Shown here: positions 2,171 to 57,435 of the stretch, piece after piece
How positions within the stretch are numbered: position 1 is the stretch's first letter
Layout of the letters: each line of letters starts with the position of its first letter
Assembly: GCA_030390025.1 (NCBI GenBank)
Contig: CM059432.1
Span: 45,944,001-46,008,000, forward strand
Direction of reading: 5' to 3'
DNA from: Squalus acanthias
Lineage: Eukaryota
DNA: 64,000 nt
The notes under the pieces: model-generated
Database searches by the model: none
What the model saw: the letters and a program-made list of their open reading frames with translations, nothing else
Told to the model about the DNA's origin: nothing
Translations under genes and position numbers: made by a program

Positions 2171-2249
2171 AGAGCGGAGGCAGCTGGGGTCGGGACTGGA
2201 ACCCAGAAACCAGCTGACCTTCCCCCCATCCTGACACCGCTTAGAAAAT

Positions 2250-29670: not shown

Positions 29671-30804
29671 GATATGGTCCCCTTTAATCCCATAACCGAC
29701 ATCATTTTCGTCAATGAGCTCGGTACTATTTTCCCCAAAGGTATTGTTAAATCCAGTACCCTTGTTAGGCCCCATGTGATATAACAGCTCTAAATCCGAT
29801 TCCGCCAGGTTTGTACTGGCCCTTTCCCAAAATCCCTCTGTTAATTCCCGCACCATTCTCCCATACAACCACACTGTCTCTGACTTGCACCAATTCGGCA
29901 GTCTCACCTTGGTCAGATTCAATATTACTGGCACCACCTCGTGATGCACATCATGGTACAATATCATCCGAGTTGGGATTACCACTAATCCATTTGTCGG
30001 TCCCGGAATCTGTTTAGGGCAGACAACCCGGGTTTCTTGTTATTCCTGCGGTTATGTTTTATTCGTAGGGGAAGGGATTTTCGGGCGAACTTTCACTTTT
30101 AATTCTATGGCCTCTATGGTTCAGTTTACGCATTCCAATACATGATAAGTAGCACACATTTCTTGACATAGCCCTCCCTCCTTTTCATCCAGCATCCATC
30201 GATAAGGGGGGGTAATTTTCTGCACCATACACGAACGCAGGAGAAAGGCTGCAAACCGGGAATTCGAACCTAAAATTGACCCAACTCTTTAGTGGGCCTG
30301 GTCAAGGGTTTACGCATCCATATATACCCTCATGCTCTTGCCACCATCGTGGCCAACATAGCATAGTTTCCCCAATGCTTTCTGATTGAGTCGGACTGCC
30401 GGGGTTCCCCCGAGGGTCCCCTATCTGGTGGTACCTCGTTATGGTACCGGCCTCTGTTCGGAGGAACCATACAAGTGGTTGACTCGCGGTTCCACTCTAG
30501 CACCTTATACATACCCCTTACCCCTTTTCCCTCTTGAATCTTGTGAGTGGTCACCCATATCCTTCCCAAACAACTGGTTTCACATGTACCCATAATGGCC
30601 TGGAGAGTGACCTCCCGAGCGGTGCCGAGGGGTGATGTTGCTGGGACAATAGTAATCTGTTGTAACTCGAACTGTTGGACGCCTCCCCGTGCATTGCTGT
30701 TGCCTCTCAGAGGTGGAGCACTATACCGCACAGCACCCAAAATAATCTCCCTATCTTCCCTTGCCTGGTCCTTGCCTGTAGGGGAAGGGGACAAAAATGA
30801 AGTA

Positions 30805-31490
30805 TTACTCCCGGTCCTGCATCCCTTCACCCCACCATTGGCCGTTCCCGCTTCTACCACTGATATCTACGGGGCGTCCTTTTCTTTTACTATGTCGTGG
30901 TTTAGGAGGGGTCTGTTGGGTTTGTTCGTGGACAGGAGTCGGTTTTGGACCTGGGGCCGGGGGCGTTTCTACGGCTCGCGCATCCTGTCCACTTTCATTC
31001 ATGCCATACTGTACCTGGGGAGGCACCACTTCAGGCGGAGGTGCCTCATTGGGTGGGGGTACCCCATCAGGCACCCCTTCTTCATCATCCCACTGAAAAG
31101 GGCGAATCAGTCGCACCATTCTCATGATTGTGGTTTGTTGTCTTCTTGACCTGCTGGTGGGCTGAAAAAGCTTCACCTGGCTAATATGAAACCACTTGAT
31201 TTTCTTAGGTAACCGAACAGCGTACATGTACACCATGGGACTGGCTTTGTCAACAATACTATACGATCCCTTGTACAGGGTTTCAAAGACTCCCACCCTC
31301 ACATAGTTCCGTACCATCACCTGGCTTCCCACCTCCCACTCCTGGGGTTTACTCGGAGCCAAGTGTAGTCAGTTGCGTTGGTGTGCCTTCCCAATGTTGT
31401 GGGCAGCCCTCAAGTTCAGTTCCTTTAAAGTTCCCAAAGGTAATTCAGGAATTTATCCCTGTTTGAATTCTTGAAATTCACCCATAACCA
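30805..31490 (-). pseudogene. Integrase C-terminal remnant of outer ERV
   Basis: EWEVGSQVMVRNYVRVGVFETLYKGSYSIVDKASPMVY...KWFHISQVKLF, homologous to the inner pol GPY/F-type C-terminus. Confidence 0.85.
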
Positions 31491-33159: not shown

Positions 33160-33609
33160 CTTGAAATTGGTCAGGAATTTTAAAAATACCAATTGTTGAT
33201 GTGATTGCCTCATGTCCAGAACTAAAGGCTTTTACACAATTTACACCAACCAGAATTTCACCATGGCCATAATAAAAGTCTGGTTTTAATAGGTTAATTA
33301 ACCTCAATAACTCCAATTTAATTCAGCCCAGTATCTTAAACTAACTAGTATCACTTGAAAAAGAGGGAGAAGTCACAGCCACACTAACAAAGAAACATTC
33401 ACACATGCTGTGTAAATGTTTAAATTCTTTATCTTCTGGGAACCATGGCAACTGTAACTTCAAGGCTGAAGCTAATCTTTTGAAAAACAAACTGTCTTTT
33501 GTGCATTTCAAAGCTGCATAGATCACAGTCAAAATAAATTCACACCTGCGTCTTTAACTTAAAATGTAATTCAATTTTGGGTGCACAAGCTTAAATTGAA
33601 ATAAACATA

Positions 33610-35226
33610 TGTAAGGGTTTTGACCCGTGTGGCTCTGTGCTCAGCCTGGGGGCTAGTGCGAGGTTAGGCCTTGTTGCCTGTTCTGGTCTCCAGCCAGTCT
33701 GGGAGCACTAGACACCTGTGAGTGGTTCGACCCACTCGCCCTTACGGTTCTGACACTGGACTTAGATGCGAGAGCAATAATGGAGAGAAAACTCAGGTAG
33801 ACCCGGTTGAATGGTACGAAATGGAAAATCTTTATTGCATATTATTCAAGATTACGAAATACATGTCATAAGCACAGATTAATGACAGTACAATCTTACA
33901 CGCAGTTATATAACTAATTTCAGGGAAACGAGGAATGAACGACACATGGTAAATGGGGGCACACATTACAGTTATCCTTAAAACTTAAACCCTCCCCTAT
34001 CAATACCTGCTCTAAACTAGATTTGTAGGATCGAGACTCATGCTCACCACTCGTGATAACTCGGAGAGTTCCGAAAACTCTGATCGGATGTTTTTCACCA
34101 CAGCACCTGATCACCCACGTGTTGATCAGGGGTCTCTGTACCCCACTTGTTTACTCGTTTCTGCTCCGGCTAGCAGGCTGGACCGTCTGCTGTCATGAAG
34201 ATCTGTGTTGTCCTCGGAGTTCCGACTCTACTCAAAAAAGAGTCTTCCTGTGCCCTCGCAGGGATGCGATAAAATTCGAAGAATAGTCTTCCTGGGCAAG
34301 GAAAAAGTGTCTCTTCGACCTACAGGCGCGGTCGGGGCTTACTGACCGTGGCGATACGTATGGTCGTCTTCTTCTCTTCTCATCTCATCTCATCTCATCT
34401 CGGGCCTTCGGTTCCAACACCGTTTACCGACTTCTCGGGATGGTGTGCCCGTTCCAAGGCTTCACAGCCCAGTTCCACACAGATCTTCGCGGCAAGCCAC
34501 GAGGCAGATCCTGGCGGATCGTAAAGTTCAACAGTCTTTAAAGCTGCAAGAGGCAGAGACACGAGGCAAGCGGCAAGAGGCAGGAGAATAAGAGAAAGAT
34601 GGACGGTTGTAGCTTACAGTTATAGTGCAAAAACTCTTCTTTTCCCGCCCAACCTTAATGTCTTTTCTTTTGTTCGGGTTTTGGCGCTCAAATTTCTTGT
34701 ATAGGGTGATCTCCGTTTTAATGGGTTTCGGGGATACTCGTAACTGTCTGAGTACCTGTTAATACTTTTCCCAATGTGTAACCGGTCGGTATTCTCCCTG
34801 GAGGGGTTTTGGGGCTTCCAAATGTTTTCTGTAACTACCCGCTAACGGCTCTCTCATCGTAGAGTCGTGGGGATTTTGCATATTAATGTCTTTGGATGGG
34901 TTCTTGATCACTTGGTACAATAGCCCTTATTCGCACCTGGGAGACCGATTTCAGTATTTATGTGTATACTGCAAACCCATGATGTCTCGTGTATTATCTC
35001 AAATGTGCTGAGTCTTCATCGATCTCGTACAAATGTTTATTGGAACGCCATCTTGTCTGCTTATCGAAAAGTCTAGAATGTTCTGCCACGAGGCGTGGTG
35101 GCCATTTTACAGGCTGCTTGTGTCCACTTTGAAAACCTGACAGCATTCTGCTGAAATAAAGCTGTTTGAACGAAACTATGTGTTTTCTCCTTATTTATAA
35201 AATCGCGATATATTGCGAATTCTACA
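33610..35226 (-). repeat. 3' LTR of inner ERV (1617 bp)
   Basis: Near-identical to 44673-46247 plus 47146-47192. Minus-strand AATAAA near 33835. PPT-like CAACAGGAGGGAC at 35227-35239. Confidence 0.95.
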
Positions 35227-35675: not shown

Positions 35676-38026
35676 TTACACGGTGCTTTCATCGTGCACG
35701 CGCACGTAACGTTCTCGCCACTCTCCCGTGTTTTCGTTCTTGGTGAGGCGTTTGCCTCTCTTACAATGTACGACCAATAAGTATACCACAATAAACACTT
35801 GGCATACAACTAAAATGTGGGAGGCTATTCTAATCCAGGAAGGCACTTCAATGTTGGTGAACAGATTCCACCACGGTGGAATTACTATGTCCAGAATGTC
35901 TGTCCCTATTTCGACAGTTTTCTGCTCTAGTGTGTAAAAATGTTTTTGTGACACCGCGACGGCTTTTAAAAGCTTGGTGAGGTGTTCAGGGAGAGGGGGA
36001 ATGAGGTATCCGAAATGCGCGACGAATCGCTGCAGGTCGGTGAAGTTCTCTTTTACGGTGAGATGAACCGTGGATGGTTCAGGGATTGGGCAATTCGCTG
36101 TTGTGCTACTTGAACTTCCGCCCTGGGTTTGAAACAGAAACTGCTGTCACTCACCGGACACCGGCTACGGTTTCCATGCTGGTAGTGTTGCGCTGCAGTG
36201 GTAACACAATATGTTCCACCCCCGATGTATGCTACCTGCGGAGGCACATGATCTTGTGCCATGGCCTCCATGGTGCAATTCATGGACTTGGCGCCAGCCG
36301 TTCTGAACCCGCACTGTGGTGTTAAAAAGGCATTCAAGTGCTGGGGACACAGTATTATGTGTGCTCCCCTGCCACGACAACCAGAGAGATCTGTACCTGT
36401 CATCGTTTGCTCCCAGCGGATGACGTAGGGTGGAACCGCTGCATAGCGAATGTGGGCTCCCCCCTGAATGACACCAATGTTCTCTACCCGATACACCGGG
36501 GCGGGCATTGCTGTGTCGCCCAAAACCGGCATACGTAGTACTATACCCATGATAGTATGGTTTGATCGTCCACAGTCCACGGGGACTGGGTATGCTTCTG
36601 AAGCTAGCCTGAGCTGGCACGGGCTTAATGCGTTCTGAAAAGGGTGGAGCGCCCGCAGGTGTTTGTTACTTATCCAGGACGGGACCAAACCTTGTTTTAA
36701 ATCCTCCAAATTACTGCGGCCCTCGCCCAGTAACCACGCCCCGTAAAGCACGCACACCTCGTTCTGCGCAGCTTGATCGGATGCATTCCGATCTTCCCTA
36801 ATCAGGGCATTTACCGTTCTCGCGTGTTTCTCTAGTTCAGCTATTATTTCTTTTAAATGGAGAGTCATGGCTTGGTCCTCGTGTAAACCCGACCCAACCA
36901 CCTTATTTTCATCTGTGAGAATGTCTTTTAATTGCGTTTTTAAGCCATTAATCTGGGTCTGCAGCTCCACGCTGTCTAGAGCGTTGACCACAGATGTACC
37001 TGTGTTGAAAGCAGTGAACGCGTCGTTCACAACACCCCTTCTTTGCCTCCCCACCTGATCAAAGACTTCATGTGGTGCGGTGTACAAACTTGTTTTATCA
37101 ATTTCCGCGAAATTGAACTCATAGAATTGTCTGAACATCTTGGTCAACAGGACCTGATACAACTGTTCCGTCTTTTTGGGGCACCACTCTGGTAACCGCA
37201 CCTCGGTGAGATTTAAAATCACCGAGGCCACCGCGTAATGTACCCCCTGAAATAGTATCTGGTCTGTGGGGACCAGTACCAAACCATTCCCGGGTCCCTT
37301 ACTGGTTTTAGGGCACCCTTCTTCCTTAGCTAGAACCACCGGAATCGTGAGCGGGGCTTTGCGTGGGCGCGTAATGAGTTCAGTGGCATTTACTGGGATC
37401 GGGGAGAATGGGGCCCCGCACCCCCTGGTGCTCCCATCCCACCTCATCCCCTGTCCGTTATCCTGCCATTGATTAATGAAAAATATGGAGATGCCTTTTG
37501 GGCAAACGTACTTTGACCCCCACATACATACATAGATTCCCTCATCCGGTTCCCACCATTTGTCCCAACAGACTCTCACTTGTCCGTTTGTCCCCGTAAT
37601 TGTCCGATGGGTATTATTACCCAGTCGTTCCCACTCGACCGAAGAGTTCCTCGTGTTTTTGCTCAGCTTTCGCAGCCACCACCATCGGCTCAATGGGACA
37701 TTCCCACTACAAGTCAAACAAATCCGTTTGCTGACGGTGACGCTGATCCTGGGTGCGATGATCCTTACTTTGGGGCACAGTAAAGAAGTCTCTTGGTAGG
37801 CAAACCCCGATGTGCTGGAATACTCCGTTGAGTTCGTTCCCAGCCATCCTGGCCACCTTCCCTTGTGGAAATAGGTGGTGGTCTCCTCAGCCTCCCGTCT
37901 TCCGGTCCCATCCACCGCGATGGGGGCCGTGTCCCCGGAGCATCCAAACACCACGACATCCTTGGTGCGTCCTCGATAGGCCAATCCGCATCCGATTGCC
38001 GCGAGCAATACTAGAATTCGTTCCAT
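35676..38026 (-). CDS. env: Env glycoprotein (signal peptide, putative Ig-like domain, furin site, F-like class I fusion ectodomain, TM), with a 1-nt frameshift at ~36089
   Basis: Signal peptide MERILVLLAAIGCGLA, then RQRR|GVVNDAFTAFNTGTSVVNALD, a heptad region and a Cys-rich domain. The TM segment (WIRIASHILVVCQVFIVVYLLVV) is in the adjacent frame. Confidence 0.85.
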
Positions 38027-38365
38027 CCTTCCTTGGTTCCTGTGATCAGATAGAATGAGGTAGCCAGCCTCGCAAGAGTCTCTGGCTTTTGTGAAGGGTG
38101 AGCGGGTCCCCTGCCCTCGCCTCACGTAAACTTCAATGTTCGCTGGATAAACTTTAACTAAACCTATCTCTAAAACTCCCATCATTTACTTCCTTTTATT
38201 ATTAAACAAAATTTTAACTACCAACTTAAACCGATTTAAAACTATAACCTCATAACCTTATCTAAAACTATAAACTTATACTTAACCTTAACCTTGAACT
38301 ATAAACTTAGAAACTTATCCTAAACTTATTACTGTACAGCGCCGCCCGTTCCCAGGGCGGCCCCT

Positions 38366-41300
38366 TTAAATTCTGAAAAGGCTGCCGCGAGCTCTTCCCG
38401 ACGGTGGGAGGGCATTGACCCCTCCCTTTGATCTGCCGCAGCCTGTTGCTGCTGCGCTGGGACTGGGCTCTTCCTGGGCTGCCTTAACCTTGAGTCTACG
38501 CCTTGGGACAGTCTGGGGACTTGACCATATCTTCCTGGGCTGGGGTATCCGACCTGACCTACGGAGAGTTACCGGGGGCAGGAATCCCAGGACCGACGGA
38601 CCGGGTTCCGAGACTTCCACTGTGGCGACCTGTGGTCCCTCCACAGTCGCTGGCTCCGCCTCTCCTGGCTCCGCCTCCCTGAACTCGGGACCTGCAGCTT
38701 GTGGCACCGCCCTACTCGGCCCAGCAGGCGGCCCTTCACTCGCAGTCCCTACCTCCCCCGAGGGCAGGACGTTCAAGACGGGCGGCTCGGGCTCTGAGGC
38801 TTCCACCGTCACGCCCTGTGGTCCCACAGCGGCTGGCTCCGCCTCCCCTGGCTCCTCCCCCCTGCGTTCGGGACCTGCAGCTTCGGTTTCCACCCTGTGT
38901 GGATCTCTATCTGCAGCCCCTGTCCCCCCTATACCTGAATCGGGGGCGACCCTTTCGTCCTCCGATTCCAGCTCTTCCTCGTCACTACCTTCACTATCCT
39001 CATCTTCGTCGAGCTCCTCGAACCCTCCCTCATCTGACTCCCAACCCCACAAAAATGTCTCACAATTTTCCAGGGTGTCCCCTTCCCTGATGCAAGCTGC
39101 TTTGCCTGCCTGTGTGCCCTGTGGTCCTACCTGGGGCTGCGAGTCCCCACTCGCAGGTTTTGCCCCTGTGGTTGGCCCTTGTGCACCTGGCTTGTACAGT
39201 TTGCACTGGTTTACGTGGAACCACTTAGTGCGCCGAGGTACTTTTACGGCGTATACCATGGGACTCGCTTTATCTACAATGTTGTAGGGTCCCATATACA
39301 GTGGTTCCAGACTCCCTACTCTGGCATAGTTTCTGACCATGACCTGGTCTCCTACTTCCCACTCCCGCGTTTTGCGGGGTTCCTGCAACAGGCGATTGCC
39401 CTGATGCTGCCTTCCCATGTTCCCAGCCGCCTGCTCATAAACCTGCTTCAGGCGCTCCAAGAGGGTCTGGGCGAACTTGTCCCTGCTTATCTCTTGGAGC
39501 TGACCCTCAGTGAGCACCGGCGCTAGCACATGGGTGGGGGTTCGCATGATCCTCCCAGTCATCACTTCGTGCGGGGAATACCCCGTACTTTTCGACTGAC
39601 TGGCCCGGACCCCCATGAGGACTAAAGGCAGAACCTCCGCCCATTTTTGGGGCGAGTTCATAGTCTCTTTCCTCAATTTCTCCTTCAGGGTCCGGTTCAT
39701 GCGTTCAACAATCCCGGATGACTGGGGATTGTGTGCTACGTGCCATTTCCCTTCAATGCCCAAAAGCATGAGGGTGTTCTGCATCACCTGGCCGGTAAAA
39801 TGACTCCCTTGGTCTGACTCCACAAAACGGGGGAGTCCCCACCGCGAGAACACTTCCCGGACCAAGATTTTTGCAGTACCCAGTGCCGTAGCTGTTCGAC
39901 AGGGGAAGGCTTCCACCCATTTGGAAAACACATCCACCAAGACGAGGCAGTATTTATAGCCTCCCTGGGTGGTGGGCAGGGGCCCTATATAGTCGATCTG
40001 TATCGACTGCCATGGTCCCTCTACCCTTCTGACGTGCCCCATGGGCACTTTCCTTTTCTGGGGGTCTGGGTTGTTTGCAGCGCACACGAGACAGCTTGCA
40101 CAGAACTCGCGGACCTGTTCCCTGAGCCCCGGCCACCATCCCGCTTGCTCTACCCGTTGCCAGGTAACCTCGGGCCCGGGGTGCCCTGCCCCTGGTCCCT
40201 CGTGAGCCAACTGGAGGAATTCCCTCCTGTGCTGCTGCGGCACAACCCACTGCTCTTCGCGGAACAGCATGCCTTCCTTAACTGAGAGGGTTGCCGTACT
40301 GTACGGACCCTCTACCTGCTTCCCCTCAGCAAGGGTTTTGAGGACTGCTTTTAGGGCGGGATCCTGGTTCTGGACGGTCTTAAGGTCTAGGGGCAATGCT
40401 ACCCTGGTGTTCCCGGGATTCCCGTCCCTGCCTTGGATCGCTGCCATGGGTCTGGGCCCATAGGGGTCCCAGAAAATGCCGTTGCGGGCACCTTCCCTGG
40501 CTAGCGCATCCGCCTGCTGGTTGCCCTCCCCACGGGGCTCTGTGGAGGAGTGAGCCTTCACCTTATGGATGAAAATCTCCCCTTCCTCCCCTACTGCTGC
40601 TAGGATCTTTTCCAGCAAGGGCTTCACCGTTAAAGGTCGCCCGTCCGCGGAGGTGTATCCACGGCGGGACCAAATGGCCAAGTATTTCGTACACGAATTG
40701 CATGTGAACATACTGTCCGAGCAAATCGTGTATGGGGTTGGGAAAATTTCTGGGTGGGTAACGACGTACACCACTGCAGACAGCTCAGCCTGCTGCGCGC
40801 TCATGGTGCTGGGGAGCTTAATCGCCAGGGCAAGGTTTGCCGCAGGGTCATAAACTCCACACCCTGTGAGTCGTTCGCCAGCAGATACTGTGCTGGAACC
40901 ATCAACATAAATCTCGCGCCCAGTGGGATGTATCCCGGCCCGCAAACCTATGTTGACTTCCCACACCCCTTCCACCGAACACCGGTGGGCTGTACCGGGG
41001 TATACCAAATTGGCCGCAAGCCTGGGCTCGCAAAGACCTTTAACTCGAAGATCCATCTGGGAAAGAAGAAGGGTCCAGCGCGCAATACGCACGCTGCTTA
41101 CGGTCCCATCTTTAATCCTCCCATCTAGAAGCATCTTAGTTGGTGTGTGATGGGTGAGGAGAGTGATGGGAGAGAGCCCTGTGAAGATCGCTGATCTTTT
41201 CACAGCCCAATGCGTGGCTAAAAGGTGCCTTTCGCAATTGGAGAAACTTCTCTCCACATCCGTTAACACCCTGGACGAATAGACAACCGGCCTCAGCTTG

Positions 41301-42862
41301 CCGTGACGCTCTTGGAGCAGCACAGCGCTTAAGCTGTCCCCGCTGGCAGCTACCTCCAGGAAAAACTCCTTCACCCCATCTATGGCCCCTAAAGCTGGCG
41401 CGGTCTGCAGATCCCTTTTTAACTTCTCGAAGGCTGCTTGGCAGCCCTCGTCCCAAGACCACTCCACTCCCTTATGGAGGAGTCGGAGCAGCGGCGCCGC
41501 TGTGGCCGCATAGTCTTCGATAAAATCCCTGCAGTAACCGGTCAGTCCCAAAAAGGACCTCACACCCCTTATGGTGTTGGGAATCGGTAACTCTTGCACC
41601 GACTCCCTCCTAGCTTTATCTATGGCTCTTTCCCCAGCGCGAATGGTCAGCCCCAGGAATTTTACTTCCTCCTGACCAATACGTGCTTTCTTAGGGTTCA
41701 CTTTAAAACCCTTTCTCGCTAGCCGCTCCAATAACTCGGCCAGCAGTGGTCCATGCTCCTCCCTTGAGTCCGTAAATAGGAGCAAATCATCCACGTACTG
41801 CACTATCTGATTGGGCTGACTAAACTCCTTTAAACTTCCTGCCATACACTGTTGGAAAATACTGGGGCTGTTGTGGAAACCCTGTGGCAGACAGTTCCAT
41901 GTGTACTGTTGTTCTTTGAAAGTAAAGGCAAACTTGTACTGGTCCTCTCGCCGCAGTGGGATGGACCAAAAACCGTTCGAGATATCCAGCACCGTGAACG
42001 TGGTCGCGGACGCTGGGATACTCCCTATTAGGTCAGCAACTGCTGCTACCGTGGGCGCGCAGGCGGGAATGTTACTGTTAAGGACTCTGTAGTCCACCGT
42101 GGCCCTCCACGAATTATCCGGCTTCCTAACCGGCCATAATGGGGAGTTCACGTGTGTGGCTATCGGCCTCAACACGCCCTGCTGCACCAAGGAGGACATT
42201 GCTGTCTCCATGTCGGGTTCTGCTTCTTTGGGGAAGTTATACTGTTTTTGGGGTCGGGTCATGGGGTCCCCATCTACGCTGACCTCAAACCCGGCAACCC
42301 TCCCACAATCGTGCTTGTGGGTTGCAAACGCGTGCATATTATCTGACACGTACGTTTGCATGTCCGTTGGGACATCCGCGACCATAAGCCCGAGGTCGTA
42401 GCCTCCGGATGGCTTCATGGTACACAGGACCCCTGTTTCTTCCTCCCCCGGAATTACCACTACCTCGCCGTCTCCACCCTTAGCCCCCCAGAGACAGTGA
42501 TTCCTGAGGTCCACGAGGATCCCGTGCCCTGATAGGAGATCGGACCCGAGGATACCTCTCCCACCCCCCTCATGCCATTTCATCAGTATGCACTTCCACT
42601 TGATGTGGAGTGCTCCTAAACGAATGGATAGCGGAAGGGAGAACGCGCCAGCCTGTTCTTTTCCCGTGAACCCCGCTAATGTGAATGGGACCTTGGTAGA
42701 TAGCGGTGAGTCAAAAGGGCTATCTGTATGAATCACAGTGCAAGAAGCTCCCGTGTCCAACAAATAACTACCCCTTTGTTTCTCTACCTCCATTTCCACC
42801 AGGGGTCGCTTCCACGCATCATAGCTGAGCGGACACAGGTAGACGGGCTGCGCGAGCTCTAG
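38366..42862 (-). CDS. pol: Pol polyprotein: protease, RT, tether (degenerate RNase H), RNase H, integrase, acidic/Pro-rich tail
   Basis: LLDTGAS; LPQGFHNSP/QYVDDLL; AASGDSLSAVLLQ tether; IYVDGSS...AQQAELSAV...CSDS...KVKAH...GNQQADALA; HHCC, IDYIGPLP, SDQGSHF, VERMNRTLK. Open and in frame with gag. Confidence 0.95.
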   Translation of the reverse strand, partial: LELAQPVYLCPLSYDAWKRPLVEMEVEKQRGSYLLDTGASCTVIHTDSPFDSPLSTKVPFTLAGFTGKEQAGAFSLPLSIRLGALHIKWKCILMKWHEGGGRGILGSDLLSGHGILVDLRNHCLWGAKGGDGEVVVIPGEEETGVLCTMKPSGGYDLGLMVADVPTDMQTYVSDNMHAFATHKHDCGRVAGFEVSVDGDPMTRPQKQYNFPKEAEPDMETAMSSLVQQGVLRPIATHVNSPLWPVRKPDNSWRATVDYRVLNSNIPACAPTVAAVADLIGSIPASATTFTVLDISNGFWSIPLRREDQYKFAFTFKEQQYTWNCLPQGFHNSPSIFQQCMAGSLKEFSQPNQIVQYVDDLLLFTDSREEHGPLLAELLERLARKGFKVNPKKARIGQEEVKFLGLTIRAGERAIDKARRESVQELPIPNTIRGVRSFLGLTGYCRDFIEDYAATAAPLLRLLHKGVEWSWDEGCQAAFEKLKRDLQTAPALGAIDGVKEFFLEVAASGDSLSAVLLQERHGKLRPVVYSSRVLTDVERSFSNCERHLLATHWAVKRSAIFTGLSPITLLTHHTPTKMLLDGRIKDGTVSSVRIARWTLLLSQMDLRVKGLCEPRLAANLVYPGTAHRCSVEGVWEVNIGLRAGIHPTGREIYVDGSSTVSAGERLTGCGVYDPAANLALAIKLPSTMSAQQAELSAVVYVVTHPEIFPTPYTICSDSMFTCNSCTKYLAIWSRRGYTSADGRPLTVKPLLEKILAAVGEEGEIFIHKVKAHSSTEPRGEGNQQADALAREGARNGIFWDPYGPRPMAAIQGRDGNPGNTRVALPLDLKTVQNQDPALKAVLKTLAEGKQVEGPYSTATLSVKEGMLFREEQWVVPQQHRREFLQLAHEGPGAGHPGPEVTWQRVEQAGWWPGLREQVREFCASCLVCAANNPDPQKRKVPMGHVRRVEGPWQSIQIDYIGPLPTTQGGYKYCLVLVDVFSKWVEAFPCRTATALGTAKILVREVFSRWGLPRFVESDQGSHFTGQVMQNTLMLLGIEGKWHVAHNPQSSGIVERMNRTLKEKLRKETMNSPQKWAEVLPLVLMGVRASQSKSTGYSPHEVMTGRIMRTPTHVLAPVLTEGQLQEISRDKFAQTLLERLKQVYEQAAGNMGRQHQGNRLLQEPRKTREWEVGDQVMVRNYARVGSLEPLYMGPYNIVDKASPMVYAVKVPRRTKWFHVNQCKLYKPGAQGPTTGAKPASGDSQPQVGPQGTQAGKAACIREGDTLENCETFLWGWESDEGGFEELDEDEDSEGSDEEELESEDERVAPDSGIGGTGAADRDPHRVETEAAGPERRGEEPGEAEPAAVGPQGVTVEASEPEPPVLNVLPSGEVGTASEGPPAGPSRAVPQAAGPEFREAEPGEAEPATVEGPQVATVEVSEPGPSVLGFLPPVTLRRSGRIPQPRKIWSSPQTVPRRRLKVKAAQEEPSPSAAATGCGRSKGGVNALPPSGRARGSLFRI

Positions 42863-44668
42863 TCATTGGGTACTATTAGACGGGCCTGTGGCACCTGCGG
42901 GGCCAGTAGCAACCGCCACCTTTCCATGCGCACTCATGAGGTTACGCATGGCTCCCAACACTGTTTCGATCGCGTCGGGAGGGATGGGTGCACTAGCTTC
43001 CCTATCAGAGACAGGCATCTGGGCTCGGGCTGCGGGATTTTTATCCCTGGAATCCTTCCAAGGGTTCCTGCAGTTCTTGCGCCAGTGCCCTGTCTTCCCA
43101 CACCCGTAACAAGCATTACTGGCCTGCGGGGCGCGGTTACCCTCCTGATGCCACTCCTTTTGAGCCGGGGCTGCGGGTCGTGCCTCATGCACCTTTCCCT
43201 TAAGGGGACGTGCTCCCATACTTCTGGTATTACGGTACCCCACCGTGAGTCGATTTAGGACCGACTCCTCTGTAGTGGCGGGGTCAGTGGGATCAAACCA
43301 CGCTTTTGCCTGCTCCCTGACGGCTGGCAAACTGTTGGTTACTATACACCTGAGCCAATGAGTTAAACCGGTGTCTGCCACATCGGCGCGCTCTGGCGCA
43401 CCTGGGCAGCTACGCTGGTATACTGGCCACAGCCTGTCGGCGAAAACCTTCGGGGGTTCTCCCTCCATCTGCACTGTCTGTCCCAGTCTAACAAACGGAC
43501 CTTCATCGTCCGCTCCCAATACTTCTAGGACCTCATTTCTTAGTGCCCCATAGGCCTTAGTTCCCCTCTTGCTCTCGTCTGAGAGACACTGAAGGATCGA
43601 ACTACCTAATGAGAATAACAGCATCTTTGCTGTTTCCCCATCGTCGCAGCCGTTAATGGCTGCGGTTTGCTCTATTTCCCTAAAATGTACGGAAGGGTCG
43701 TCTGACTCGGCCAGCTTCGGTACGTGACTGATCATAATCCTCAGCTGGTGTGAGCTGTGAGGCAACACAAGCTGGTTGAGGAGATCTCCTTGTTCCCCAC
43801 CGTCTCTGTTCGGGCCCCTTTTGATACTCGTGACCGGACACAACGGTCCCGGTTCCACTTCTACCTCGGTGGGCTCTTTCGTTACTTCTACCACTTTCTT
43901 CCTTACCCAGGTTTCCGAATAGCTGGGTGGCGCGGAGGGCGTAGTGGCTAATACTTCCTCTGCTTTGTTTGGTGGGAATTTCTGAAACTCCTCATCCACT
44001 AGCGGCTGGTGTGCTGACGGACTGATAAGGCACACCATACCGTGTGCTTTGTTCACGGCCCTTTTAAGGTGTTCTATCTCCTTTTGGCAGACGCTATGAT
44101 CGGCCCCCTGAAATTTATCCTCAAGGGCCATCTTATATGCCGCCCTAACCCCCGTTAAGCTCTCTTCCTGGGCTTTTATTTGGGCAGCTTGACGGGCACA
44201 TCGTTCCTTTAGTCTGCCCTCACTTAACTTTGCCTCAGTGACCTGGCACTCGAGGTAATCTATTTTTGCTTTATGGTGGCTGGTGACTACCTGGCGTTCT
44301 TGGTGCAACGCATTTAAATTCGTAATGAGCAACTGCCCCCCAGTGACCTTCTCGTCCATTTCCACCTCTAAATGCCTGATCCGAGCTGTTTGTGCTGTAA
44401 TGACCTGGTCCGAAATTTGGACTTGTCTTTTATAGCACATCAGCCAGACCGCTTTCTCCACTGTCTTTTTGTGTTCCTTGCTATCTGTCCACCTCTCGGC
44501 TGCCTCTAGTGGACACTTATCCACCAGCAGGTCACTTATCCATTTCTTAGTTAAATTTACTTTTCCGAACACATAGTCTGCTATTCTCTCTTCCATGACA
44601 TTTCGTCCAATCATACCAAAGTCTAACACATTACCCTCTCGCTGCCAGTGTCCTGCCGCAGTCGCCAT
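42863..44668 (-). CDS. gag: Gag polyprotein (coiled-coil N-terminus, PSAPPSY late motif, capsid-like region, single CCHC knuckle)
   Basis: Open 601-aa ORF directly after the 5' LTR with CYGCGKTGHWRKNC. The true start may be a downstream Met. Confidence 0.9.
   Translation of the reverse strand: MATAAGHWQREGNVLDFGMIGRNVMEERIADYVFGKVNLTKKWISDLLVDKCPLEAAERWTDSKEHKKTVEKAVWLMCYKRQVQISDQVITAQTARIRHLEVEMDEKVTGGQLLITNLNALHQERQVVTSHHKAKIDYLECQVTEAKLSEGRLKERCARQAAQIKAQEESLTGVRAAYKMALEDKFQGADHSVCQKEIEHLKRAVNKAHGMVCLISPSAHQPLVDEEFQKFPPNKAEEVLATTPSAPPSYSETWVRKKVVEVTKEPTEVEVEPGPLCPVTSIKRGPNRDGGEQGDLLNQLVLPHSSHQLRIMISHVPKLAESDDPSVHFREIEQTAAINGCDDGETAKMLLFSLGSSILQCLSDESKRGTKAYGALRNEVLEVLGADDEGPFVRLGQTVQMEGEPPKVFADRLWPVYQRSCPGAPERADVADTGLTHWLRCIVTNSLPAVREQAKAWFDPTDPATTEESVLNRLTVGYRNTRSMGARPLKGKVHEARPAAPAQKEWHQEGNRAPQASNACYGCGKTGHWRKNCRNPWKDSRDKNPAARAQMPVSDREASAPIPPDAIETVLGAMRNLMSAHGKVAVATGPAGATGPSNSTQ
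44650..44667 (-). promoter_or_regulatory. Primer binding site of inner ERV (tRNA-Ser-like, uncertain)
   Basis: TGGCGACTGCGGCAGGAC, 5 nt after the LTR CA. Partial match to the tRNA-Ser 3' complement TGGCGTAGTCGGCAGGAT. Confidence 0.55.
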
Positions 44669-44672
44669 TTTC

Positions 44673-47192
44673 TGTAAGGGTTTTGACCCGTGTGGCTCTG
44701 TGCTCAGCCTGGGGGCTAGTGCGAGGTTAGGCCTTGTTGCCTGTTCTGGTCTCCAGCCAGTCTGGGAGCACTAGACACCTGTGAGTGGTTCGACCCACTC
44801 ACCCTTACGGTTCTGACACTGGACTTAGATGCGAGAGCAATAATGGAGAGAAAACTCAGGTAGACCCGGTTGAATGGTACGAAATGGAAAATCTTTATTG
44901 CATATTATTCAAGATTACGAAATACATGTCATAAGCACAGATTAATGACAGTACAATCTTACACACAGTTATGTAACTAATTTCAGGGAAACGAGGAACG
45001 AACGACACATCGTAAATGGGGGCACACATTACAGTTATCCTTAAAACTTAAACCCTCCCCTATCAATACCTGCTCTAAACTAGATTTGTAGGATCGAGAC
45101 TCATGCTCACCACTCGTGATAACTCGGAGAGTTCCGAAAACTCTGATCGGATGTTTTTCACCGCAGCACCTGATCACCCATGTGTTGATCAGGGGTCTCT
45201 GTACCCCACTTGTTTACTCGTTTCTGCTCCGGCTAGCAGGCTGGACCGTCTGCTGTCATGAAGATCTGTGTTGTCCTCGGAGTTCCGACTCTACTCAAAA
45301 AAGAGTCTTCCTGTGCCCTCGCAGGGATGCGATAAAATTCGAAGAATAGTCTTCCTGGGCAAGGAAAAAGTGTCTCTTCGACCTACAGGCGCGGTCGGGG
45401 CTTACTGACCGTGGCGATACGTATGGTCATCTTCTTCTCTTCTCATCTCATCTCATCTCATCTCATCTCGGGCCTTCGGTTCCAACACCGTTTACCGACT
45501 TCTCGGGATGGTGTGCCCGTTCCAAGGCTTCACAGCCCAGTTCCACACAGATCTTCGCGGCAAGCCACGAGGCAGATCCTGGCGGATCGTAAAGTTCAAC
45601 AGTCTTTAAAGCTGCAAGAGGCAGAGACACGAGGCAAGCGGCAAGAGGCAGGAGAATAAGAGAAAGATGGACGGTTGTAGCTTACAGTTATAGTGCAAAA
45701 ACTCTTCTTTTCCCGCCCAACCTTAATGTCTTTTCTTTTGTTAGGGTTTTGGCGCTCAAATTTCTTGTATAGGGTGATCTCCGTTTTAATGGGTTTCGGG
45801 GATACTCGTAACTGTCTGAGTACCTGTTAATACTTTTCCCAATGTGTAACCAGTCGGTATTCTCCCTGGAGGGGTTTTGGGGCTTCCAAATGTTTTCTGT
45901 AACTACCCGCTAACGGCTCTCTCATCGTAGAGTCGTGGGGATTTTGCATATTAATGTCTTTGGATGGGTTCTTGATCACTTGGTACAATAGCCCTTATTC
46001 GCACCTGGGAGACCGATTTCAGTATTTATGTGTATACTGCAAACCCATGATGTCTCGTGTATTATCTCAAATGTGCTGAGTCTTCATCGATCTCGTACAA
46101 ATGTTTATTGGAACGCCATCTTGTCTGCTTATCGAAAAGTCTAGAATGTTCTGCCACGAGGCGTGGCGGCCATTTTACAGGCTGCTTGTGTCCACTTTGA
46201 AAACCTGACAGCATTCTGCTGAAATAAAGCTGTTTGAACGAAACTATGGGGTAAAAATTCAGTTGGTTGCGCCTCCCGTTAGCGCCTTAAGAGGGCGCTA
46301 ATGGGGTGCAAAGCCGCTAACGCCCGGGCGCAGCGATGTTTGCGCCGCTCGGGAACTTAACTTGACATTGTGCGGCGGCGCTAAAACTTACCGCTGCGAC
46401 CACCTGCGCGCGCAGATTGTGACGTCATTCCATGGTGCAACGCCCTTGGGGCGCCCCGGAGTGGAAATTGAGTGGCGCCCCCTGCCTTACCGCCTGGCGC
46501 TTCCAATGACCAGAAGACTGGAACGCTATCAATCGCTGTGGGGCTGGGGGGGGGCGCTATTTAAAGGGGGCCTCTTCCTGTCTTTTATTGTTGGTGGCAT
46601 TTTTGAACTACGCATTCTGAGAGAGAGAGGGAGAGACTTCTGGAGAGATTCAACGTTGTGTGAAGGAGTTTTTGGGTACTGAGCAGCACTTTGCAGGTTC
46701 ATTTTGATTTGCCATTCCTTGTATCGATTTAGCAGAGACTGTGGGAGCTGCACTCTGAGCTCTTTGCCTGGTACTCTCCATTGTTCTTTCCAGCACATTT
46801 GATGTGCAAGTCTCTCCAGGCCGAGATTCAAGGCAGCAATGAACAGGATGTGGATGGAAAGCAAGATTAACCATCCCCTTTAAGAACTGGCCCGTGCCAT
46901 TGTGTGTGTGTTCCATTGCTGACTGACATTACATGAGCTTCGCCAGCGCTCCGAGTTAGCGCCTCACTGCTCGGCCTTTGCGCCTTAAGAGAGGTGTGCA
47001 GCGCCTGCTTTAGCGCTCCACTCACCTCCCGGGGTGGTAAAAGTGAAGTTTCCAGTCAGTGCCGATAATTAGCGCCAGGCGCTAATATTTGCGTCCAGAC
47101 GATATTTGCGCCCCAAATGGGGCGCGACCTAATTTCTACCCCTATGTGTTTTCTCCTTATTTATAAAATCGCGATATATTGCGAATTCTACA
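44673..47192 (-). repeat. 5' LTR of inner ERV, interrupted by a Harbinger MITE
   Basis: Direct repeat of 33610-35226 once 46248-47142 and one TAT are removed. Confidence 0.95.
46248..47142. mobile_element. Harbinger MITE (895 bp)
   Basis: TIRs GGGGTAAAAATT / AATTTCTACCCC and TSD TAT. Ends are shared with 13844-17671. Near-identical reverse complement of 57436-58328. Confidence 0.92.
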
Positions 47193-47669
47193 CATACTTA
47201 AACAACCACATTCACACAACTTAGAAATATTGATCCCTGTAATGGGTTATGAACTCGAAGTGCTAAATCAGTTCAAAAACCAAAAACATGGCTCAAGTAT
47301 CTCTCAAATAATACATGTGTATACATACATAAAACAATTAACAAACTTAAAACAGCACATGCTTGCCCAACGTTCAAGACAAGAGTACAAAGGGTTAAAC
47401 AGCTTTTAGCTCTCTGCACAGAAAAGTGGGTGGAGCTAAAACAAGCACAACAGACACTTTCTTTCAAAGACAGACTTTCAGGCAAAAGGAATACTGTAAC
47501 TCCTTAAAATTCATAGTCCGGAAAACTTCCACACTTTCACACAAACTGAAATTCCAGCATCCTTTAAGGTTCCTTTCACTCAACAAATCTTGTGTTTTAT
47601 TTGTCTCGGCACAAAAGCTGATAACTTCCGTGTCGGTAAAACTTTAAGTTTCTCTTCTTTTTCCTTCTT

Positions 47670-49214
47670 TTAAATTGTCGTCTCAGCAGCTTTTTCTGAC
47701 CCCCTCCCCTTTCTGGTCCCTTCCTGTTGCCATTTTCGAGAGGTCCCACCTCTCATTTCACATACCTTGCCTCTCGGCTTATTCATTACTCCAGTATTCT
47801 TTTTATCTGCCTGATGTGCCTGGAAGTGCAGGGTCATTTTCCTCACTGCCCTAGCTTCGGTATTTCTGTCACCCGCATCCTCTGGCTCATAATCAGACAT
47901 CGCAGCTTGTAGATAGGGCAGACTGTGAGAAATCAAAGTGCGCAACCCGTGGTTATGCGGGGCTCCCACTAGTTGTCCTCTATCTCCCAGCACCCCTCCC
48001 ATGGCTGCTAGATATGTGGGCCACAGCCTGTCTGCAAATGCCACCGGAGTCTCATTTGGACCCTGCTCCACATCTGCTATAGCTTTAAAAGGATCCCCTT
48101 TTCCCTGTTCCATTACCTGGGCAATTTTCACCTTCAACCCCTCATAATCGCCTCCCGCTCTTTTGCTTTCTGGAGGGAATCCGGCAAAAACTCCGGGGCT
48201 CAGGGTGAATAGCAGTAAGTTCTTCCTCTCCTCCTCAGCAAGGCCGTTTAAGGCGGCCATTTGTTCCACCTCTAAATAGTGCCCTTGGGGGTCCCCTCCC
48301 TGCTCCAACTTTTTCATATCACTGGAAATTTTCCTTAATTCCTCAGTATTATACGGGACCACAAATTACCGATCTAGCAGCCCTAAGGCTTCTGCCTCCG
48401 CACCCTCGCCCGGCGCCTGCTTTTGCCACATCGGGGCCATAGGTGGGGGCCAAATTCCCTCCGGTGGGCCATAGCCTGGTCCCTGCTCTAACTCCGCGTC
48501 ACCTTCCTCACCTTCACTATCCCTTTCTCCATCGTCCAGCCCTTCTCCTCCTGACGAAGGAGTCATAGCGCACACAATACCCCTCTGAACCCGTAACCTA
48601 TCCACCAACTCCTTAATCTTCCTTTTGCACTCGGTGTGATCCCCTCGAGCACCCCTATCTTCAGAAACCTGTTTCTGAACAACCCTATATACAGCTTTCA
48701 GGTCCTTATTAGCTTTCCGTGCCTGTTCTGCCCGATGTCTATGATTGAATAGTCCTTTTGACAAGGCATCACACTGATCCTGATTATTAATGCCCTGGCA
48801 CTCGAGATATTGCTCTTTATTACACCACCTTTCCTTTTCCTTCTCAAATTTTTCATCGAGCTTTCTCTTCCTTTCCCTCACTTCCTCTACCTCCTTCTTT
48901 CTATTCTCCGTTTCTTCCTCTAATTCCTTCAGAAGTTGGTTTACCACTGCTTCTCTGTCACTGGCTTTTTCTGCCATATCCTCTATTTCCTTTCGTAACT
49001 TAATCTTTTCACACTCATCGTTCTGAACCTGCCTTTGATAGGCTAACAACCAGACGGCTTTTATTATCTGCTGCCGACATGTGGACCCTTGTGTCCATTA
49101 TTCGGCCTCATAAACCAGATCATCACCATCAATAATGATCCGTATCCACCTCATCCAGAGAGGTAACTTCCCTGCCACATACTTAATGACTAACTCATCC
49201 ATTGTCTTTGCCAT
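47670..49214 (-). pseudogene. gag of outer ERV (premature stops, truncated before the zinc knuckle)
   Basis: Homologous to the inner gag (ETPVAFADRLWP vs EPPKVFADRLWP; DHTECKRKI vs DHSVCQKEI). In-frame TAA at 48366. Confidence 0.85.
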
Positions 49215-49248: not shown

Positions 49249-49253
49249 AAATC

Positions 49254-49939
49254 TGTAAGACATTTGAATTCACCCTTGTCCTTTAACCCGTCCAACAGTT
49301 TCCAAAGTTCAGACCCATCGACCAGACAACACAAAACACAAGGATTCGAGAATAACTTTCTTTTTACTTAAAATCAGCAAGAGGTTACAAGTACGCTCAC
49401 AAAAAACTGTTGCATATAATACTCCCAATTATATCTCAGCATACACAGGTTTTATTCCCTTACTTTAAGCTCAAATGATTATAAGCCAACATTACGTACG
49501 TACTAACACCAGCGAGTGGTCAGTTCGGCGATGGCTAGATGTACGACTTTAACTGGCAACTGACCAAGTTGCCTCTGACTGCAGCAGCCCCGAGTGTCTT
49601 AAAACAGCATCTATTATACCCTAAAAACCTGGGCAGGCTCCTCAATGCGTATGTGTCCCAAACTGTGTGATAAATGGTCTGCAGCTGTTTTCCTCTTATC
49701 AGTGGGCCCAAAGGCCCTTCACACCATTTGCCTGAAGATGTTCCTGTCTTTGTAACGCCCTATAACGTTTGTTCCTGCTCAGGGTCTGTCACTTCCTTAT
49801 CTGAGTAACAGCTTTCGTACAAAGTTCCCACAGGAACCAACCTCTCAACCTCCCGAAGCATGCTGGGATATTAAATTTGGTCAACTTTAAGTTTGTTCAA
49901 GTTATAGCAAATTCTTACAGCAAATGGCTTATTCTTACA
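49254..49939 (-). repeat. 5' LTR of outer ERV (686 bp)
   Basis: Direct repeat of 25500-26185, visibly more diverged than the inner LTR pair. Confidence 0.92.
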
Positions 49940-50485
49940 ATCCCATGTTTCTCAGAGAAGGTGGTGGTGGCAAGTTGAAAATCTACCTCATAGACTTTTC
50001 CCAATGTACTCATTTCCAAAGTAAGTCACTTGTCATGATTATTTATAATCTTATATTTTCAATAAGGAACTGGTCCTGGAAATCACTCGCACATTCACAA
50101 TTCCCAGTATGCCTATTTGTGAAATGGAAGGTATTAGATGAGTAGGCATTTATGAAATTTGATTAAAATCAAGAAAAGACTTAATGGCCTGTAATTTGCG
50201 GCCAGCGGCGAAGCAAAGGCGCTTGCCTTGCTGCTGGCCTCGAAGAAAGCTGTCCACAGAGACCTCATGAAATTGATTGTAGCACTGAGTAATGGGAATT
50301 CCCAGCAAAGAGCTGCAGTGACATCAACAAGCTGTCTAAGCAGATAATCACATTGAAGAATTCTCACAGACAGCAAACCAGGAAATGAAAAGCAGTTTTT
50401 ATCCTCACTTTTTAAAAATGTTACAGAGAGCGAAATATAGATTGGGACTTTCACATGGGGATAAGGTAGAAGCTGGAATAGAGTT

Positions 50486-53735: not shown

Positions 53736-56700
53736 ATAGAGTTTTTCAGCACAGAAAGAGGCCCTTCGGCCCATCATGTCCGCGCCAGCCATCAAGCCCG
53801 ATCTATCCTAATCCCATTTTCCAGCACTTGGTCCGTAGCCTTGTATGCTATGGCGTTTCAAGTGCTCATCTAAATGCTTCTTGAATGTTGTGAGGGTTCC
53901 TGCCTCTTCCACCCTTTCAGGCAGTGAGTTCCAGATTCCAACCATTTTTTGGGTGAAAAAGTTTTTCCTCAAATCCCCTCTAAACCTCCTGCCCCTTACC
54001 TTGAAACTATGCCCCCTGGTTATTGACCCCTCTACTAAGGGGAAAAGTTCCTTTCTATCTACCCTATCTATGTCCCTCATAATTTTGTACACCTCAATCA
54101 GGTCCTCCCTCAGCCTTCTCTGCTCTAAGGAAAACAACCCCAGCCTGTCCAGTCTCTCTTCATAGCTGAAGCGCTCCAGCCCAGGTAACATCCTGGTGAA
54201 TCTCCTCTGCACTCTCTCCAATGCAATCACATCCTTCCTATAGTGTGGCGACCAGAACTGCACACAGTGTTCCAGCTGTGGCCTAACTAGCGTTTTGTAC
54301 AGCTCCATCATAACCTCCCTGCTCTTATATTCTATGCCTCGGATAATGAAGACAAGTATCCCATATGCCTTTTTAACCACCTTATCTACCTGTCCTGCTG
54401 CCTTCAGGGATCTATGCACATGCACACCAAGGTCGCTCTGATCCTCTGTCCTTCCTAGGGTCCTACCATTCATTGTGTATTCCCTTGCCTTGTTAGTCCT
54501 CCCAAAATGCATCACCTCACACTTTTCAGGGTTAAATTCCATTTGCCACTGTTCTGCCCATCTAATCAACCCGTCTATATTGTCCTGTAGCCTGAGGCTT
54601 CCCTCCTCACTATTTACCACTCCACCAATTTTCGTGTCATCTGCGAACTTACTGATCATACCTCCTACATTCATATCTAAATCATTAATGTACACTACAA
54701 ACAGCAAAGGACCCAGCACCGATCCCTGCGGTACACCACTGGACACAGGCTTCCAGCCACAAAAACAACCTTCGACCATCACCCTCTGCCTCCTGCCACT
54801 AAGCCAATTTTGGATCCAATGTGCCAAATTGCCCTGGATCCCATGGGCTCTTACCTTCTTGACCAGTCTCCCATGTGGGACTTTGTCAAAAGCCTTACTG
54901 AAGTCCATGTAGACTGCATCAACTGCACTAACCTCATCCACACACCTAGTCACCCCCTCGAAAAATTCAATCAAATTGGTTAGACATGATCTCCCCCTAA
55001 CAAAGCCATGCTGACTATCCTTGATCAATCCTTGCCTCGCCAAGTGGAGACTAATTCTGTCCCTCAGAATTTTTTCCAATAATTTCCCTACCACTGATGT
55101 TAGGCTCACTGGCCTGTAATTCCCTGGTTTATCCCTACTACCCTTCTTGAATAATGGTACTACGCTAGCTGTTCTCCAGTCCTCTGGCACCTCCCCTGTG
55201 GCCAGAGAGGTTCTGAAAATTTGTGTCAGAGCCCCTGCAATCTCCTCCCTTGCCTCACACACAGCCTGGGATACATCTCGTCTGGACCTGGGGATTTATC
55301 CACTTTTAAGCCCGTTAAAACCGCTAGTACCTCCTCCCTCTCAATACTAATTTGTTCAAGTATATCACAATCCCCCTGCCTGATTTCTATGCCTACATCG
55401 TCCTTCTCCATAGTGAACACAGATGCAAAATATTCATTTAAAACCTCAACTACATCTTCCGGCTCTACACACAGATTGCCACTTTGGTCCCTAATGGGCC
55501 CTACTCGTTCCCTGGTTATCCTCTTGCCCTTAATATACTTATAAAACACCTTGGGATTTTCTTTTACTTTGCCCGCCAGTGTTTTTTCATGCCCCCTCTT
55601 CGCTCTCCTAATTTCTTTTTTAAGTACCCCCCTGCACTTTCTATACTCCTCTAGGGCTTCCAATGTTTTTAGTCCTTTGTATCTGCCAAAAGCCTCCCTT
55701 TTTTTCCTAATCCATTCTTGTATATCCCTTGACATCCATAGTTCCCTGGGCTTGTTGGTCCCACCCTTGACCTTTACGGGAAGATGTTGGCGTTGTACTC
55801 TCTCTATTTCCTTTCTGAAAGACTCCCACTGCTCTGATGTGGATTTTCCTACAAGTAGCTGATCCCAGTCCACTTTTGCCAGATCCTGCCATATCATATT
55901 AAAATACGCCTTCCCCCAATTTAGAACCTTTGGGGGAAAAATTCAGTTGGTTGCGCCTCCCGTTAGCGCCTTAAGAGGGCGCTAATGGGGCGCAAAGCAT
56001 CTAGCGCCCAGGCGGCGCTAAACACTACCGCCACGATCTCCTGTGCCGGCAGATCGTGACGTCAGTCGAGTGCGCAACGCCCCGGTATCGCCCCGGAGCA
56101 GATATTGAGTGGCGCCCCCTGCCTTACCGCCTGACGCTAGCAACGACAGGTTGAGGGGAGCGTTTTGCAGTCATGAAGGGAAAGGGGGAGCGCTATTTAA
56201 AGGTGACCGCTTCCTGCCTTTTATTGTTGGTGCCATTTTTGAACTATGCATTCTGAGCGAGAGAGAGAGAGACTTCTGGAGAGATTCAACATTGTGTGAA
56301 GGAGTTTTGGGTACTGAGCAGCACTTTGCAGGTTCATTTTGATTTGCCATTCCTTGTATCGATTTAGAAGAGACTGTGGGGCCTGCACTCTGAGCTCTTT
56401 ACCTGGTACTCGCCATTGATCTTTCCAGCAGATTTGATGTGCAGGTCTCTCCAGGCCGAGATTCAAGGCTGCAATGAGCAGGAAGTGGATGGAAAGCAAG
56501 ATTAACCATCCCTTTAAGAACTGGCCCGTGTCATTGTGTGTGTGTTCCATTGTTGACTGAAATTACATGAGCTTCGCCAGCGCTCTGAGGTAGCGCCTCG
56601 CTCCTCGGCCTTTGCGCCTTAAGACAGGTGTGAAGCGCCTGATTTAGTGCTCCAATCACCTCCAGGGGCGATAAAAGTCAAGTTTGCAGTCGGTGGCGAT

Positions 56701-57435
56701 AATTAGCGCCAGGCGCTAATCTTTGCGCCCGGCCGATAATTGCGCCCCAAATGGGGCGATACTGAATTTCTCCCCCTTTATTTCCAGTCCATCTTTGTCC
56801 TTTTGCATGACTACCTTAAATCTCACCAAATTATGGTCACTGTCACCAAAATGCTCTCCTACTGACACTTCTACCACTTGCCCGGCTACATTCCCTAGAA
56901 TTAGGTCCAGTACCGCGTCCTCTCTTGTTGTCTTTCTACATGCTGGCTCAAAAAGCTTTCCTGGATGCCCTTTAAGAATTCCGTACCCTCTAAGCCTTTC
57001 ACACTCTGACTATCCCAGTTAATATTGGGGAAGTTGAAATCCCCTACTATTATTACCCTATTATTTCTACACTTCTCTGAGATTTGCCTACATATCTGTT
57101 CCTCTATCTCCCCCTGACTGTTTGGGGGCCTATAGTACTCTCTCAGCAAAGTGCTTGCCCCCTTTTTGTTTTTCAGTTCTACCCATATGGCCTCATTAGA
57201 GGACCCTGCTAAGATATCATCCCTCCTTACTGCAGTAATTGACTCCTTGATTAATATTGCGACACCCCCTCCTCTTTTACACCCCCCTGTGTCTCGCCTG
57301 AAGATTCTATACCCCGGAATATTGAGCTGCCAGTCCTTCCCCTCCCTCAATCATGTCTCTGTGATAGCAACAATATCATACTCCCATGTGTTCATCAACA
57401 CCTTCAATTCATCTGCCTTACTCGCAAGACTCCTT
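53736..57435 (-). mobile_element. CR1 LINE ORF2 (EN+RT, frameshifted), interrupted by MITEs
   Basis: EN at 56901-57400 (GGGVAILIK, GDFNFPNINW) and RT at 53808-55897 (YMDFSKAFDKVPH, PQGSVLGP, SKFADDTK). Frameshift near 55260. Confidence 0.95.
55932..56776. mobile_element. Harbinger MITE, diverged subfamily
   Basis: TIRs GGGGGAAAATT / AATTTCTCCCCC and TSD TTT. The core is similar to 46248-47142. Confidence 0.88.

Follow-up and report, generated by a model that had tools for sequence, protein, structure and literature searches.

A single in-frame UGA-CUAG between gag and pol of a young endogenous retrovirus of Squalus acanthias, with a predicted RNA rod downstream: a candidate readthrough junction

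The DNA analysed here, referred to as the window, is a stretch of 64,000 nucleotides from Squalus acanthias (contig CM059432.1, positions 45,944,001 to 46,008,000), and its minus strand carries a provirus of about 13.6 kb, a later insertion included, in which gag and pol are separated by a single in-frame UGA. The element has the layout of Retroviridae, with gag, pol and env between two long terminal repeats (LTRs) and a target-site duplication on either side (Table 1). The LTRs are 98.99% identical over 1576 columns, and a further 51 nt beyond the insertion match at 100%. Because the LTRs are 99% identical and flanked by a 4-bp target duplication, the element is a recently integrated endogenous retrovirus (ERV); its CpG observed/expected ratio is 0.71. 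Pfam places RT_RNaseH_2 at 470-558 and RNase_H at 650-792 of Pol, that is, a dual RNase H in the order protease (PR), reverse transcriptase (RT), tether, RNase H, integrase (IN).

On the minus strand the letters of the junction are ...ACC CAA TGA CTA GAG CTC GCG CAG..., with CTAG directly 3' of the TGA at 42862-42859; from base composition, CTAG would follow a given stop by chance with a probability of about 0.004. The gag open reading frame (ORF), which runs from stop to stop over 42863-44770, directly adjoins the pol ORF (38366-42862) in one frame on the minus strand, and along the 2135 codons of gag-pol the TGA at the end of gag and the final TAA are the only stops. The original prediction had described a gag end CAA TGA CTA GAG CTC and a frame open into the protease without a frameshift; both descriptions are borne out, the TGA being read at 42865-42863 on the minus strand and followed in the same frame by 1498 codons. 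As these codons stay open, it is ruled out that pol is a decayed copy. The first letters of Pol are LELAQPVYLCPLSYDAWKRPLVEMEV, and the protease DTG occupies codons 36-38.

Table 1. Position of the provirus features in the window (+1 is the first nucleotide after the UGA).
Feature	Position	Strand	Basis
5' LTR, split by later insertion at ~46249-47141	44673..47192	-	match to 3' LTR
Primer-binding-site-like sequence, begins TGGCG, 5 nt after 5' LTR	44650..44667	-	
gag, 601 aa from first ATG: N-terminal coiled coil, middle resembling a capsid, a single CCHC knuckle	42863..44668	-	homologues P0068, P0069, P0087
In-frame UGA between gag and pol (TGA read 42865-42863)	42863..42865	-	sequence
8-nt spacer, CUAG at its start (+1 to +8)	42855..42862	-	sequence and fold
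Predicted extended rod-like stem-loop, +9 to +219, 211 nt	42644..42854	-	fold prediction
pro-pol ORF, 1498 codons for protease, RT (YVDD), tether, RNase H, integrase and a long tail at the C-terminus	38366..42862	-	
env-like gene, RQRR site; broken, two frames (36053-38185, 35676-36146)	35676..38185	-	
3' LTR, 1617 nt, short purine tract before	33610..35226	-	
Target-site duplication CATA (4 bp)	33606..33609; second copy 47193-47196	+	

Beyond the spacer, folding predicts an extended rod whose basal arms lie at about 42854-42820 and 42681-42644. The fold of 225 nt has a minimum free energy of -96.4 kcal/mol (z -5.12), which was matched by none of 200 dinucleotide shuffles; synonymous randomisations gave nothing as good either (0/200 and 0/300). 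Along gag-pol, the junction had the lowest z of 136 folding windows when each was compared with 16 randomisations. The basal pairs are unchanged between 15 and 37 C and need at least 215 nt, pairs +13 to +29 persist in wider sequence context, and the opposite strand gives a weaker fold (-73.4). No structure appeared when only 80-150 nt after the stop were folded (z +0.8 to -0.65). The span given by the original prediction, 42799..42870 without a strand, does cover the stop but takes in only the first 64 nt after it, whereas the predicted RNA element reaches to about 42644; the fold of the downstream 100 nt that it proposed shows no structure (z +0.8), about 220 nt being required. In a simple pseudoknot scan, 3 of 60 shuffles did as well as the best candidate, which is also incompatible with the rod. 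Run X5 shows depth peaks over the rod arms; these were not used, since contig depth cannot rank parts. Stable hairpins are also predicted on the 5' side, at ~42900-43015 of the minus strand, 60-150 nt before the stop, with z of -3.9 and -3.2 for windows of 90 nt.

Variation among copies was taken from contigs of four sequencing runs (organisms A to D), as the best 40 of 156 rows, best supported first. Ten of these variants fall within +1 to +225, five at unpaired positions and five with the pair kept, and none breaks a pair; pair-breaking transitions are possible at 74 of the 225 positions, which gives a probability of about 0.02 for zero in ten if the variants are independent. Among the same 40 rows there is no variant at 42859-42865, the stop and its CTAG, in any of the four runs. 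Letters private to this copy stand at 42737, 42794 and 42855, where other letters make up 95-100% in the four runs. Loose ends at 42831 (four of four runs) and 42866 (two runs) point to a possible diverged sister family whose match would be largely confined to the region between the stop and about +32; its stop letters are not visible and no single contig shows it.

The end of Gag is shared with relatives. In five Gag proteins of 33-56% identity the C-terminus falls at the same aligned residue, no more than one residue away from the Gag end here: three skate loci (55-56%) have six residues remaining after the alignment on both sides, P0069 (45%) has three against four, and P0087 (33%) has 12 against 13. 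The end of the sixth full-length relative tested (25% identity) does not align, and P0070, a shortened skate Gag of 334 aa, was excluded from the count. At the other end of the protein, P0068, P0072 and P0087 start at the residue that matches the first gag ATG. When Gag-X-Pol, with X at the stop, was searched against 1.84 billion representatives, none of the 37 matches had its best stretch across the junction, and five protease-side matches begin at their own N-termini. Two other elements have a stop in the corresponding place: scaffold 2 of CmiERV reads CAA TGA CAT in frame with its protease (by eye; PMC4422223 supplement), and the viral contig L003 has 32 codons from its in-frame stop to the catalytic aspartate versus 36 here. 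A copy-specific nonsense mutation, one of the two findings that the original prediction named as fatal to its proposal, was not seen. Since the Gag relatives share this end and no listed variant touches the stop, the stop is, on sequence comparison, a conserved feature and not a private mutation.

Programmed readthrough of UGA-CUAG aided by a 3' structure is the simplest account of this junction and the most likely one, and we put the probability that Pol is made by readthrough at the UGA at roughly 0.8. Most ribosomes would stop at the UGA and release Gag, while in a small share a near-cognate tRNA would decode it and translation would go on through protease, RT, RNase H and integrase, giving a low, fixed Gag-Pol ratio. 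The signal would combine the leaky context UGA-CUAG with a rod of RNA whose base lies 8 nt past the stop, as in alphaviruses. If readthrough occurs, the modelled rod may stimulate it, with chances that we rate slightly better than even. Type II signals have UGA followed by CUA or CGG and an extended 3' stem-loop 8-12 nt past the stop; the junction has the former in its letters and the latter as a prediction, with the base at +9. The type III signal of Moloney murine leukaemia virus (MoMLV), UAG-G with an H-type pseudoknot, is absent, the stop being UGA-C and the best pseudoknot of the scan above lacking significance. UGACUAG is reported to give at least about 1.3% readthrough, with a host-dependent boost from structure (PMC13517186), and the alphavirus stems begin 8-12 nt after the stop and have loops of 101-154 nt (PMC3159437).

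Several points weigh against this interpretation. With 300 randomisations, the folding window at +3285 equals the rod (z -4.75 vs -4.56), and strong folding is therefore not unique to the junction; this second site, 225 nt at ~39353-39577 of the minus strand, lies in the integrase region. Taken alone, the basal 35-nt arm ranks 74th of 1221 arms, and 10 of 500 synonymous randomisations were as good. The ten listed rod variants are all one-sided, with no compensatory two-sided change among them, and the variant evidence as a whole is that of the best 40 of 156 rows. The Gag relatives are protein records, in which the stop codon and its context are not visible. In a yeast reporter, the junction of Tca2, which likewise has an in-frame UGA and a predicted 3' structure, gave no readthrough (PMC2194720). 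Finally, an acceptor-like AG lies at +39, in a pyrimidine-rich CAG (15 of 20).

This last point belongs to the rival that survives best, although it is unlikely: that, in the manner of foamy viruses, Pol is translated apart from Gag on an RNA that is spliced or starts internally, the UGA being an ordinary terminator. It would gain from an in-frame ATG at pol codon 24, from the four protease-side relatives P0006, P0099, P0106 and P0110, called from an M near codon 6 that precedes the 'PL' motif by a few residues (calls that may be GTG or TTG), and from the cryptic promoter that the Tca2 junction holds (PMC2194720). However, the residues 5' of +39 align with L003, and the kept gag frame and the CUAG would both be coincidence if pol had an RNA of its own. 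Foamy pol has its own AUG, another frame and a spliced RNA. Here pol lies in the gag frame, and the ATG at codon 24 is its first, 12 residues before the catalytic aspartate; a start there would remove the N-terminal strand of the protease, which serves dimerisation in retropepsins. None of the four listed joints is of splice type, but the runs whose contigs supplied them are presumably DNA or of unclear kind, so they make no test. It is considerably less probable that the UGA encodes selenocysteine or that a frameshift or a hop bypasses it. UGA with a 3' structure is indeed the general shape of selenocysteine signals, but Rfam returned two sub-threshold snoRNA matches and nothing else over 13,801 nt; moreover, pol shares the gag frame and therefore cannot be reached by a single frameshift, the junction has no slippery heptamer, and both other frames (+1 and -1) close early, at +4 and +44. 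Least probable, and largely refuted, is a nonsense mutation in a family with one Gag-Pol ORF, for instance an arginine codon lost to CpG decay. Changes from CGA to TGA are frequent in vertebrates, but the Gag end is shared by five of the six full-length relatives tested, the best 40 of 156 rows hold no variant at the stop, and the copy is young by its LTRs and its CpG content.

The lineage of the element was approached through its RT. The tree kept 48 of 62 candidate rows (at least 190 aligned residues) and was rooted at the midpoint, foamy and lokiretrovirus rows being absent. The RT falls within a 24-row retroviral set (support 100/99), apart from 25 rows that include all the gypsy-labelled ones; its nearest rows are proteins of Xenopus, coelacanth and others (45-56%), and in this tree it forms no supported clade with SnRV. 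The motifs LPQGF and QYVDD are retroviral and occur only in the rows other than lokiretroviruses of the PMC7947760 supplement, where, within the 14 of 15 places listed, DISNGFW is confined to SnRV rows and QYVDDLL to gamma and epsilon rows (both by eye). The RT is thus retroviral and appears to be SnRV-like, by its motifs, and of a deep lineage, its position inside the retroviral set not being fixed by the tree. Membership of the lokiretroviruses was considered and dropped, since by eye the RT has the motifs of the SnRV row instead of those of the loki type (loki rows being absent from the tree). In viral contigs, searches with a single protein or with the junction pattern gave no match and a search with an alignment gave L003 alone, with 43.5% identity over 262 RT residues and 32% over 816 Pol residues; its junction, TAG GGC, is the hexamer given for SnRV (PMC13517186). 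Two distant loci, L001 and L002, came from a search of metagenome contigs and were not used.

Named homologues of Gag and Env come from the skate Rhinoraja longicauda and the sawshark Pristiophorus japonicus, in keeping with a host among the cartilaginous fishes, and skate and sawshark are the only sources among the four Env matches. The env-like protein has no similarity to L003 in a comparison of a partial env only, and no match was found in Pfam or PDB searches; in the ESM Atlas it reaches 0.92 to Baculo_F/Gypsy clusters and 0.90 to a cluster in which 47% of the members carry PF00523. Structure models of Env had pLDDT (predicted local distance difference test) values of 33.7 and 31.9 and were not used for a fold search. 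The reading of Env as a class I fusion protein of F type is no more than a lead. An F-type-looking env would thus sit on a retrovirus with SnRV-like RT; the env of CmiERV lineage I is of gamma type (by eye, PMC4422223). The frame of env changes near 36053-36146 in this copy. Elsewhere in the provirus, the Pol tail of about 270 residues (38366-39200, minus strand) is acidic and rich in proline and alanine and holds an internal duplication (38572-38700 vs 38758-38883, 78%). The primer-binding-site-like sequence (44650-44668 region, minus strand), which by eye is similar to the post-LTR site of CmiERV scaffold 2, overlaps at its start with the first gag ATG.

Other elements surround the provirus. 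The insertion inside the 5' LTR is an element of ~893 bp (46249-47141) that has short inverted repeats at its ends and a CTATG duplication, and related copies lie at 57436-58328, 56011-56777, 17276-17671 and 13845-14177. The provirus itself is nested in an older, related ERV (25499-49943, minus strand) with LTRs at 49253-49943 and 25499-26189 (92.8%), a gag-like piece at 47697-49205 (27%), an integrase end at 31150-31482 and env pieces at 26637-30514. No protease-RT region was found in this older ERV, and therefore the window has no second gag-pol junction. RT-bearing fragments recognised by Pfam RVT_1 only, at 2245-3495, 6031-7614, 28469-29248 and 53808-55295, belong to other retroelements, probably long interspersed nuclear elements. 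There is also a near-perfect inverted repeat of 425 nt at 26839-27692.

The UGA junction in itself has precedents, and what is new is the CUAG context together with the 3' rod. The locus offers a defined, testable signal, made up of the stop, a spacer of 8 nt and a rod of 211 nt, within a young, multi-copy retrovirus family with natural variants, and automated ERV screens that bar internal stops, or that split gag and pol, will misread such families. The literature searched gave no account of a retrovirus that combines UGA-CUAG and an extended rod at its gag-pol junction, subscription papers and bioRxiv supplements lying outside the search; the available parts of PMC10435555, PMC5210030, PMC12193657 and bioRxiv 2023.10.26.564294 have nothing on the junction. 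As a tentative and rather doubtful extension, UGA-CUA readthrough with a 3' structure might be old, widespread and unreported in deep vertebrate retroviruses, here and in part of the lokiretroviruses, a candidate early state before UAG-pseudoknot readthrough and -1 frameshifting, paired here with an F-type envelope. Lokiretroviruses are the sister group of all retroviruses, and their pattern, if true, bears on the evolution of the Gag:Pol switch.

Lokiretroviruses share with the present element a dual RNase H and a coiled-coil N-terminal part of Gag, as well as an RxxR-cleaved F-like env, the latter a lead only here; unlike them, this element has an RT with the retroviral LPQGF/QYVDD and a Gag with a zinc knuckle (PMC7947760). 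In the supplement of that paper, by eye, 7 of 24 consensuses have TGA-CTA at gag-pol, followed by G in Ofa, Cne, Pyo and Sau and by A in Dcl, Lro and Bsp, the last with a further frame break downstream of the junction. The remaining ones comprise Tfu with TGN-CTA, 11 given as one ORF and five that are not assessable; the one-ORF label and the Arg-Leu of Pfl at the matching site would speak for the nonsense mutation dismissed above. The main text of PMC7947760, in its available parts, makes no mention of readthrough, stop codon or frameshift, nor does PMC9040795. The TGA of the loki consensuses could be CpG decay, and the parallel is a lead.

SnRV and the SnRV-like ERVs, including CmiERV lineage I (PMC4422223), likewise place gag and pro-pol in a single frame, interrupted by one stop immediately ahead of the protease, and have similar RT motifs. 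They differ in context, L003 having TAG GGC, which is type III-like, and CmiERV TGA CAT, as opposed to TGA CTAG with a 211-nt rod here. Among fish retroviruses, SSSV (UGAAGA), ZFERV (UGACGA) and RMEV (UGAAGU) have a UGA at gag-pol (PMC13517186), as does the frog XtERV-S (PMC8278194). In all four the UGA is in frame and readthrough has been proposed, as here; the three fish viruses are without CUAG, and the context of XtERV-S was not seen. For the fish retroviruses, the cis-elements of readthrough are unknown according to PMC13517186. The contrast that the original prediction drew with the UAG of gammaretroviruses thus holds for the CUAG context, and the rod is a new addition to it, but it was overstated as regards the UGA.

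In-frame stops between gag and pol are textbook knowledge for gamma- and epsilonretroviruses. At MoMLV gag-pol the stop has a like role and place, with an 8-nt spacer before the structure; however, it is UAG-G with a compact pseudoknot, as opposed to UGA-C with a rod. The nearest match in signal is the nsP3-nsP4 junction of alphaviruses (type II of Beier and Grimm; SINV, ONNV, CHIKV), with the same UGA-CUAG, an 8-nt spacer and a long-range stem that closes 100-200 nt (PMC3159437, PMC13517186). Alphaviruses are an unrelated family, and the whole 211 nt here form one predicted rod on the basis of folding and a few variants, not mutagenesis. The type II entries (UGA-CUA/CGG) of the 2026 review are alphaviruses, coltivirus and triatovirus (PMC13517186). 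The same heptamer is found in vertebrate readthrough genes (PMC4132726), which are cellular, gain short extensions and make no polyprotein switch. Because these genes share the heptamer, some leakage at UGA-CUAG is to be expected of the host ribosome.

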